A stretch of DNA of 32,000 nucleotides from a virus. Below, piece by piece: positions 4,677 through 5,780 of this stretch; the stretch's first letter is position 1; the number at the start of each line of letters is the position of its first letter. Below the pieces are notes generated by a model. That model did no database searches. It was given only the letters and a program-made list of their open reading frames with translations, and had not been told where the DNA came from. The DNA is taken from positions 40,117 to 72,116 of IMG/VR virus record IMGVR_UViG_3300032132_000754. One strand, 5' to 3'. Made by a program: the position numbers and the translations under genes.

Positions 4677-5780
4677 TTAACCCTCTAAGTTCCAAACGTG
4701 GTTATTGGCAGGACCAGTCCCAACAAGAGTGACCGGAATGTTCAATGAACCTTCTAGTTCATCGATGAAAGCCCTGACTTTAGTCGGAAGTTCTTTAACA
4801 TCAGTGCCACTAGTTTGGAAGCAAGAATAGTCCAAATAATTCGCAAAATTAAGAGCGATCTTAGTCGCCCCATTTACCATGGCTGCTCTAAGCGCTTGAT
4901 CCATCGAGAATTTAAAGACTCGCCTCAGCCTTTTAGTGACAGTGGTCATTTCATGTAGATCATAATTTGCGGGGTAGCCAGAGATTTCCTTGATTTGTGC
5001 CCAAGTCATTTCTTCTTGACCAGGATAAGCGTCACCAGAGTAACCGACCTGCTGGTTAGCTTCTACAACATTGCCAACTCTGATTGGGAAAGGTCGTAAA
5101 ACAAGATAGACATCGCCAACGCTTGATGGTGGTAATCCCATGTCCATCATTTCACGAGCCGTAGTGCATTCCCGAGAGGTGCATTGCGGATAGTGGCTGC
5201 CGTGGTTCAATCCAAGGCTAAATCCTTGGCTACCCTCGTGAAGCCACATAGATCCATCTAAATTACCGTGAAGTTCAAATAACCAATCTTCGGTAATCAT
5301 AGATTGTAATTCGGGAAAATCGCGCGCTAGTTTAACTTCAGCGCCGCGCATAATCTTCTCAGCACGGGCAGCTCCAGACCCTTGCATCGTACTAGCGATG
5401 TGTTTTGTGCCTCTGGCACCACGTTCTAGCTCGGCATGTGCTTCTGTGACTACCATGGCTCTAGGATGAATACGAACGTCTTCTGGAGCAACTTGGCATT
5501 CTTTCATTTCTTTAAACAGTTGACTTAGAAAGAATCCTGCGCCTGGGCCAATGTACGATTTAACATTTTGTCCCTTTGTGTTCAAAAAACTAGTGACTGG
5601 CAAGATTTTCGAGATAAAACGTGTTTCGTCTCCCAAAACAATGGTATGGCCAGCATTCGGAAGATTGTTGGTGCTTGCTGCTTCGACACCGTATTGTTCT
5701 CCAAGATAACCAGCGATAAGTCCTTTACCGCAGCTCCCCCATTGGCCATCGACCACAACGTTAAATTTACCCAGCTTCAT
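4677..5780 (-). CDS. purA: adenylosuccinate synthetase family, short PurZ-like form
   Basis: Contains QWGSCGKGLIAGYL, NLPNAGHT and EGSQGFSLG, which are PurA-family motifs. The P-loop reads GSCGKG instead of GDEGKG. 367 aa. Confidence 0.85.
   Translation of the reverse strand: MKLGKFNVVVDGQWGSCGKGLIAGYLGEQYGVEAASTNNLPNAGHTIVLGDETRFISKILPVTSFLNTKGQNVKSYIGPGAGFFLSQLFKEMKECQVAPEDVRIHPRAMVVTEAHAELERGARGTKHIASTMQGSGAARAEKIMRGAEVKLARDFPELQSMITEDWLFELHGNLDGSMWLHEGSQGFSLGLNHGSHYPQCTSRECTTAREMMDMGLPPSSVGDVYLVLRPFPIRVGNVVEANQQVGYSGDAYPGQEEMTWAQIKEISGYPANYDLHEMTTVTKRLRRVFKFSMDQALRAAMVNGATKIALNFANYLDYSCFQTSGTDVKELPTKVRAFIDELEGSLNIPVTLVGTGPANNHVWNLEG

Follow-up and report, generated by a model that had tools for sequence, protein, structure and literature searches.

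The 32,000-nucleotide stretch of viral DNA analyzed here (positions 40,117 to 72,116 of IMG/VR record IMGVR_UViG_3300032132_000754; hereafter the window) carries on its minus strand, at 4677..5780, a gene for a PurZ-type (Ser-type) homologue of adenylosuccinate synthetase (367 aa; PF00709, E = 1.2e-32), referred to below as the query protein. This is the sole 367-aa open reading frame (ORF) at that position; its protein begins MKLGKFNVVVDGQWGSCGKGLIAGYL in the ORF listing, and the N-terminus reads MKLGKFNVVVDGQWGSCGKG. The P-loop, QWGSCGKG, spans residues 13-20, and alignment places Ser and Cys where the PurA enzymes of E. coli and P. horikoshii (GDEGKGK/S) have Asp and Glu. Full-length alignments to PurZ and PurA structures place the protein in the adenylosuccinate-synthetase fold and family. 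An original prediction, made from the DNA alone, had described a 367-aa protein of the adenylosuccinate-synthetase family with this P-loop, had stated that the catalytic Asp and the neighboring Glu were both replaced, and had proposed it as a candidate PurZ, the enzyme type tied to genomes in which 2-aminoadenine (Z) replaces adenine; the ORF, the Pfam match and the alignment agree with its description, and the protein is indeed short and resembles archaeal PurA.

In a phmmer search of all PDB sequences, the PurZ of phage phiVC8 was the best match (9e-47), followed by P. horikoshii PurA (6e-41), the PurZ of S-2L (4e-37), the PurZ0 of Archimedes (3e-25) and bacterial PurA (~1e-14). Among NCBIfam models, the PurZ model NF038379 ranked first at 222.9 bits and the archaeal PurA model NF003295 second at 205.1, and the PurA cut-offs were missed by far (205.1 against 368 for NF003295; 126 against 396 for TIGR00184). 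The family phrog_1211, annotated as “2-aminooxy adenylosuccinate synthetase”, matches the query at 2.6e-59.

Residues published as determinants in phiVC8 and S-2L PurZ (PMC8342488; bioRxiv 10.1101/2025.10.22.683976) were mapped onto the query protein. Four of the five functionally characterized phiVC8 determinants are identical, with S14, T262, F295 and Y298 corresponding to S16, T279, F312 and Y315. S16 replaces the catalytic Asp13 of PurA (S14 in phiVC8, S23 in S-2L) and is Ser in 119/119 alignable homologues. T279 of the TTVTK loop is invariant in the clade; its phiVC8 counterpart T262 faces dGMP's 2-amino group, and the position is Gly in PurA. The ATP-type donor site NFANY has F312, N314 and Y315 in all 119 clade members, where PurA and PurZ0 have (K/M)..D, and the Asp with which PurA and PurZ0 read the guanine of GTP (Asp333 in PurA) is Asn314 in the query, as in phiVC8. 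Lys283 is likewise shared with PurZ, at the position of the PurA Arg that contacts the ribose 2'-OH. Three further residues are as in PurZ (P233, W252 and Y244, here P232, W260 and Y252); in the metaGPA study (bioRxiv 10.1101/2025.10.22.683976), W252 and Y244 were the two residues that discriminated dZ contigs best. From S-2L, the query keeps the TTVT tip, R280, C204, V241, N305 and P336. The mapped determinants are invariant or nearly so in 120 homologues at 46-86% identity, and since the diagnostic residues are unchanged in all 119 that could be aligned, their presence is not due to chance. As judged from these alignments, the query is PurZ-like in every residue tied to function.

When 1.84 billion cluster representatives were searched exhaustively with HMMER, 505 proteins were found at E<=1e-30. 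Among the best 150 of these the P-loop was readable in 144, reading GS in 144/144 and GD in 0. A distance-based neighbor-joining tree (178 sequences, 343 columns, 200 bootstraps) included as outgroups PurAs gathered with P. horikoshii PurA as query, namely 14 short archaeal PurAs and 9 long PurAs (8 from species genomes, plus E. coli PurA). All Ser-type sequences, the query included, split from all 23 Asp-type cellular PurAs at 99.5% bootstrap, and the short archaeal PurAs (n=14) are monophyletic at 97% and lie outside the Ser-type group. The PurZ0 references form their own 100% clade, which is the last to join. The query falls in a 57-sequence subclade (67.5% bootstrap) that holds no characterized enzyme and is previously undescribed. 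Scanned with this one protein, the genomes of 185,579 species gave no close cellular relative of the enzyme. Residue determinants, HMM ranking and phylogeny, the last of which the original prediction had named together with active-site alignment as a check, agree that the candidate is of PurZ type and not PurA type. Going by its sequence, the product of 4677-5780 is PurZ-type without being a textbook PurZ; it belongs to a new subfamily and does not sit closely within the curated family.

Of the 150 nearest representatives, about 14 measure 730-1200 aa and have their PurA-like part split. All four of the long homologues scanned (P0121, P0123, P0125 and P0130) carry LAGLIDADG endonuclease domains, and two of them also intein-splicing or Hint domains. 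The split points put one or two insertions per gene near the NAGHT and CTSR active-site motifs. Such a repeated insertion pattern is typical of indispensable genes, and we count it as a sign of functional importance.

Among the closest known systems is the ATP-dependent N6-succino-2-amino-2'-deoxyadenylate synthase PurZ of phiVC8 and S-2L (PDB 6FM1, 7ODX; NF038379). At 34-40% identity (E = 9e-47 / 4e-37), the proteins have in common the short PurA fold of archaeal type, Ser where PurA has its catalytic Asp, the motifs STxQG, YPxCTSR and PIRVG, the TTVTK..RRVF loop and an LNF(A/C)(N/Q)Y ATP-type site. They differ in that the query forms a separate subclade, scores below the curated cut-off and has Trp before GS, where phiVC8 and S-2L have Phe/Tyr. 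Relative to phiVC8 PurZ the query has two 9-residue insertions, one after PIRVGN and one ahead of the TTVTK loop; S-2L PurZ, too, has extra residues after PIRV in the multiple alignment. The C-terminal region of the query is closer to archaeal PurA than that of phiVC8/S-2L PurZ is. Unlike its phiVC8/S-2L counterparts, the query gene is not beside datZ/mazZ, has no family-A DpoZ nearby (though no polymerase was examined) and lies on a jumbo phage (311 kb contig), whereas PurZ of the phiVC8/S-2L type is found on 40-80 kb sipho- and podoviruses. With PurZ0 (Gordonia phage Archimedes/Ghobes and Arthrobacter phage Wayne; PDB 7VF6; PMC12884076), which is accompanied by DutZ and DmtZ, the query shares a Ser-type P-loop, the TTVT loop and an NDT-superfamily enzyme in place of DatZ. 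The likeness is only 28-31% in identity (E = 3e-25); PurZ0 combines a PurA-like (S/T)M.D nucleotide site with GSEAKG, whereas the query has NFANY and GSCGKG, and no dUTPase-like DutZ was found in the query window or in 29 related loci. P. horikoshii PurA (5K7X/2D7U; NF003295) has the same length class and fold and aligns at 34% identity near full length, including the C-terminal helices (6e-41), but its GDEGKG, G(T/A)(V/T)TGRRRR and TMLD (GTP) motifs are all three altered in the query.

To describe the gene neighborhood, 30 loci were compared, namely the query locus and the 29 related ones. In ~20 loci the order is two sigma-like genes, an MptE-like gene, an NDT-family gene (132 aa), a gene for a ~250-aa protein, two small ORFs, purZ and a xylose-isomerase-like TIM barrel, and in about 17-21 of the 30 the NDT-family gene adjoins purZ and the DERA-fold gene. 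In the window the two partner genes lie at 8089-8727 and 7371-8123; the original prediction had missed both, and we weigh them above the neighbors that it named.

The first of these (8089..8727, minus strand) encodes a 212-aa NDT-superfamily protein and stands at the position of the 132-aa NDT-family gene of 14 other loci. Its AlphaFold2 (AF2) model (pLDDT 80.8) matches NDT 8PQQ in Foldseek at 5e-7, with a TMt of 0.66-0.70 for NDT, and also BcmB/MilB and DNPH1; its homologues carry PF15891/PF05014. The 212-aa and 132-aa families align in hhalign with a probability of 85% (E = 6.9e-6), and the 132-aa family in turn matches the CMP N-glycosidase BcmB (4JEN) at 2.6e-7, MilB, BlsM and NDTs (to 6e-5). 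Seven residues are invariant across 19 homologues of the 212-aa protein (Y10, T117, G119, E122, E123, K132 and P133); the fold is Rossmann-like, with Y10 and E122/E123 at the positions of the Tyr and the nucleophile Glu of NDTs. On the strength of the model, the protein is a candidate (d)NMP N-glycosidase or deoxyribosyl(phosphate) transferase.

The second (7371..8123, minus strand) encodes a 250-aa TIM barrel of the DERA/DeoC fold (AF2 pLDDT 89.1, pTM 0.82), for which the top 50 Foldseek PDB matches are all DERA (best 8.4e-12, TM 0.7-0.8). Its gene is the most constant neighbor of purZ, present in 21/30 loci at a median distance of 761 bp, and JGI labels two of its homologues “deoxyribose-phosphate aldolase”. 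Strand register, without superposition, places an invariant R150 on strand 6 and K181, likewise invariant, on strand 7. Pfam, PHROGs, NCBIfam and PDB phmmer searches gave nothing useful for the 212-aa and 250-aa proteins, nor did a PDB profile search for the latter, and only structure prediction resolved the two folds; an hhalign comparison of the 250-aa family with E. coli DeoC was not significant. Set beside DNPH1/Rcl, MilB/BcmB and DmtZ and beside DeoC/DERA, the partner proteins show the NDT fold, in which Tyr and Glu are conserved, and the DERA TIM barrel; the 212-aa protein has ~60 extra residues. DmtZ, of the NDT family, hydrolyses dAMP and transfers deoxyribose-5-phosphate (dR5P) to Z, and DeoC has served in vitro as the coupling enzyme that consumes the dR5P made by DmtZ (PMC12884076); NDT domains are also enriched on dZ contigs (bioRxiv 10.1101/2025.10.22.683976). 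Because dR5P is both the DmtZ-type product and the DeoC substrate, a pairing of NDT and DERA folds is biochemically coherent. No phage-encoded DERA tied to Z-DNA was found in the searched literature.

Sigma-like and SbcC-like genes are part of the conserved synteny too. Upstream of the module, a block at 9181-12339 with counterparts in about 16-20 loci encodes a 324-aa weakly MptE-like protein, a pair of proteins similar to region 4 of sigma factors and another of 176 aa, after which comes an SbcC-like ATPase. The block probably represents an early or middle transcription/replication region that the phage family conserves. Immediately downstream of purZ in 12 loci (L003 11862-12725, L119 11193-11993 and 10 others) lies the ~266-aa xylose-isomerase-like TIM barrel, whose best PDB match is Art22 (9.5e-4) and which has no counterpart in the window. 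Six loci (L001 8282-9949, L097, L115 8287-9933 and three more) have as divergent neighbor of purZ a ~550-aa protein with a C-terminal Mom-family/GNAT domain (Pfam Mom 2.1e-5), and in L003 two GNAT acetyltransferases (9438-9989, 11386-11865) flank the purZ-type gene; these neighbors may hint at further purine modification in the relatives. In a 66%-identical Tara lineage, a DUF6378 protein (PF19905, 9e-12; L001 11589-11879) is encoded two genes downstream of the purZ-type gene; considered as a MazG-like partner, it shows no similarity to MazZ/DUF550 by phmmer.

The other genes around purZ vary more among loci. The original prediction had placed the gene in a module oriented toward deoxynucleoside monophosphates (dNMPs), with a kinase, a NUDIX protein, a deaminase and an exonuclease. 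Pfam and PHROGs show these four genes to be real; they are mostly lineage-specific, the exonuclease, NUDIX, glutamine synthetase and deaminase genes each being present in only 2-4 of 30 loci. The P-loop dNMP-kinase-like gene (minus strand, ORF 4156-4695, running from its likely ATG over 4156..4674) matches phrog_139, deoxynucleoside monophosphate kinase, at 4.2e-16, with weak AAA_18/AAA_17 and adenylate-kinase matches besides. At its junction with purZ, the stop codon TAA of purZ is followed after 2 nt by the likely kinase ATG, and a GAGGG ribosome-binding site lies inside the end of purZ. The kinase gene is found in the query genome only (1/30 loci), and even the 86%-identical relative L096 is without it; we rejected it on this ground as a conserved pathway member. 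Directly upstream of purZ, a DEDD (DnaQ/RNase T-type) 3'-5' exonuclease gene (5789..6586, minus strand; PF00929 5e-7; phrog_192, “DNA polymerase exonuclease subunit”, 2.4e-20) is present in 3/30 loci, and a link to Z handling is speculative. The dCMP deaminase gene (6863..7399, minus strand; PF00383 1.2e-18; phrog_174 7.3e-35) stands between the DERA-fold gene and purZ in 4/30 loci, and its role is general deoxynucleotide-pool remodeling.

The NUDIX gene (1945-2481, minus strand; PF00293 1.6e-12; 3/30 loci) had been proposed in the original prediction for the MazZ or DatZ role. Its best solved relatives are GDP-mannose mannosyl hydrolases (GDPMH; E. coli GDPMH, 4.7e-11), and its Nudix box GGRVVRGESLIGASKRITRGEAGI (RITRGEAGI) is of GDPMH type and lacks two of the three Glu that are catalytic in MutT-type dNTP pyrophosphohydrolases. 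The protein is a poor candidate for that role, which we rejected on the box and the PDB relatives; its sequence points to a GDP-sugar, not dNTPs, as the target. A type II glutamine synthetase (3071-4147, minus strand; GlnII model 480 bits, below the cut-off of 500) and a glutamine-dependent asparagine synthase of nitrogen metabolism (28361-29926, minus strand) look like auxiliary metabolic genes outside the purZ module; glutamine synthetase genes are also on record in another large-phage lineage in the literature.

The genome is that of a jumbo phage, a point that the original prediction missed. A 311,419-bp contig is on record with the exact PurZ-type protein, homologues occur on 200-400 kb contigs (among them viral contigs of Tara Oceans and IMG/VR that reach 408 kb), and uncultured jumbo phages have the subclade as a syntenic core gene. 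The window also encodes SbcCD-like genes, PhoH and a gp21-type prohead protease, and the closest cultured phages reach only ~25% identity in SbcD. When 25 kb of the window was compared by Megablast with 50,697 phage records, nothing matched at the DNA level, so the phage has no cultured close relative among these records. In the phage collection, the records that have a homologue show <40% identity and are genomes of 39-83 kb; the exceptions in genome size are a few unannotated or non-phage records at ~27% identity. No paper found in our literature search linked PurZ to jumbo phages. Forty tRNA genes covering most amino acids occupy 16100-30353 (minus strand), with small ORFs in between; for the one predicted at 26671-26743, the anticodon has four bases (“gatg”) and no amino acid is assigned. 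Inside this array, a gene at 24709-25170 (minus strand) encodes a 153-aa RF-1/GGQ-domain protein of the ArfB-like peptidyl-tRNA hydrolase/ribosome rescue type, an identical copy of which in locus L015 matches PF00472. Run SRR9663116 contains the query phage as a 73.5-kb contig version together with a second jumbo phage that has a 55%-identical purZ-type gene (P0036, 177-397 kb contigs), so at least two clade members coexist in one sample.

From the active-site residues we predict that the enzyme would combine dGMP, Asp and ATP into N6-succino-2-amino-2'-deoxyadenylate (dSMP). ATP would occupy the adenine-stacking site of F312/Y315, with N314 replacing the GTP-binding Asp. The O6 of dGMP would be phosphorylated, S16 and T279 would accommodate its 2-amino group, V235 and K283 (Arg in PurA) would disfavor a 2'-OH, and the addition of aspartate would yield dSMP. 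Host PurB and host or phage kinases would then take dSMP to dZTP, and the dNMP-kinase-like gene here appears to be translationally coupled to purZ. Exclusion of dA without DatZ/MazZ could proceed through the NDT-superfamily enzyme (8089-8727), which would split dA nucleotides into base and deoxyribose-5-phosphate in the manner of DmtZ/DNPH1, and the adjacent DERA-fold protein (7371-8123) would handle the sugar phosphate. It is quite probable, given the residue signature, that the enzyme is a dGMP/ATP-dependent succino-aminodeoxyadenylate synthase. The wider reading, in which 4677-5780 encodes a PurZ-type succino-amino-deoxyadenylate synthase of an undescribed jumbo-phage core-gene subclade with a role in making Z, is the one we favor with moderate confidence. 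The analysis shows the family membership, residue signature and phylogeny of the enzyme, the folds of its partners and the synteny; the presence of Z in virion DNA is inferred, as are the substrates and the directions of the NDT and DERA steps, and we judge the chance of substantial Z in the phage DNA to be about even; taken jointly with the identity of the enzyme, it is somewhat favored.

Several findings weigh against the favored reading. The score of 222.9 bits is under the NF038379 cut-off of 300. The fifth phiVC8 determinant, F12, corresponds to W14, which is aromatic but is the PurA residue (across the clade this position, Y21 in S-2L, is Trp in 97/120 and Phe in 12), and four lower-ranked metaGPA positions differ (S273, G256, P144 and I34). 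The subclade stands apart from all biochemically characterized PurZ/PurZ0, and its place within the Ser-type group is left open by the tree. In the metaGPA study, 3/17 PurA-family proteins encoded by unmodified contigs fell outside the PurA group (bioRxiv 10.1101/2025.10.22.683976), so that clade membership does not guarantee Z-DNA. A search for datZ and mazZ, suggested in the original prediction, came back empty: with thresholds of E<=1 (phmmer) and E<=0.1 (tblastn), no homologue of DatZ, MazZ, DUF550(+DUF5664) or DutZ was detected, either in the 32-kb window or in the 10 kb on each side of the gene at the 29 related loci, and a DatZ scan of IMG/VR gave 28 contigs, all <=52 kb and none with the query clade. 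Of the 311-kb genome the window covers only about 10%, and polymerases were not examined. Kinship of the NDT-like proteins with DmtZ is not detectable by sequence (hhalign E = 0.02-0.05 to the Wayne NDT domain), and the NDT genes here would be a parallel recruitment. In its model, the DERA-fold protein appears to have Arg150 at the place of the Schiff-base Lys (E. coli K167), with the second Lys kept (K181 for K201). Finally, since sigma-like and SbcC-like genes belong to the same synteny, adjacency may partly reflect genome architecture and not function. Our doubt arises chiefly from the missing dATP-exclusion enzyme of known type, the uncharacterized subclade, this synteny, which may be partly architectural, and the metaGPA count.

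There is some room for other readings. One is that PurZ-like chemistry operates without wholesale replacement of A by Z, making instead another or further-modified purine, for example with the Mom-like/GNAT proteins of the relatives, or only a partial substitution. The uncharacterized state of the subclade and the lack of any dATP-removing enzyme of known type in the window and 29 related loci speak for it, as do the ~550-aa Mom-family/GNAT neighbor in 6 loci and the pair of GNATs in L003. The window, however, holds no Mom-like gene, on which ground Mom-type further modification in the query genome was rejected; the pocket residues for dGMP and ATP match PurZ closely, and the NDT-family partners fit a depletion of dA as in known Z systems. 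We regard this alternative as unlikely.

The NDT-like, DERA-fold and PurZ-like proteins might also form a salvage, catabolic or pool module for deoxynucleotides, with no Z in the DNA; host dNMPs could be turned into bases and triose/acetaldehyde, or dGMP could be drained. An N-glycosidase-type NDT and a DERA would make up a complete route of dNMP catabolism via deoxyribose-5-phosphate, GlnII and asparagine synthase are encoded in the same genomes, and no Z-specific polymerase or dATPase was seen (no polymerase having been examined). Such a module would nevertheless leave a PurZ-type synthetase, which has no known role beyond dZMP synthesis, making dSMP as costly waste, although its active-site residues are strictly conserved and its gene is repeatedly an intein target; we hold it to be quite improbable. 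An ordinary PurA serving as an auxiliary metabolic gene that boosts AMP synthesis is very improbable: JGI calls several homologues “adenylosuccinate synthase”, the C-terminal third aligns better to archaeal PurA than to phiVC8 PurZ and Trp14 is a PurA residue, but Asp13 is Ser and Asp333 is Asn in all homologues, scores lie far under every PurA equivalog cut-off, the split from 23 cellular PurAs has 99.5% bootstrap support and 185,579 species hold no close relative.

The enzyme class is already known, and automated PHROG annotation would label the query PurZ-like. What is new is the subclade, its status as a jumbo-phage core gene, its repeated invasion by inteins, and an NDT and DERA-fold set replacing DatZ/MazZ or DutZ/DmtZ. 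Z-genomes, in which A is fully replaced by 2-aminoadenine, belong in the literature found to sipho- and podoviruses. If the jumbo-phage subclade is active, the range of Z-DNA would grow to take in a large group of jumbo phages, giant, remotely T4-like and common in the environment, and it would have to be explained how 300-400 kb of triple-bonded Z:T DNA is replicated and packaged. Contigs of such phages, if their DNA is modified, may be under-represented or mis-called in metagenomics and in restriction-based and nanopore/PacBio work. More tentatively, a large and widespread uncultured jumbo-phage clade (200-400 kb contigs, some marine) may write its genome with 2-aminoadenine independently of DatZ/MazZ, using this PurZ subfamily to make dSMP, an NDT-family enzyme to destroy dA nucleotides or transglycosylate them, and for deoxyribose-5-phosphate a DERA-fold protein, possibly with a non-canonical Arg/Lys active site. 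The conserved pairing of NDT and DERA-fold genes by purZ suggests a third solution to the removal of dA, after DatZ/MazZ and DutZ/DmtZ, which if true would add a new enzyme to the pathway.

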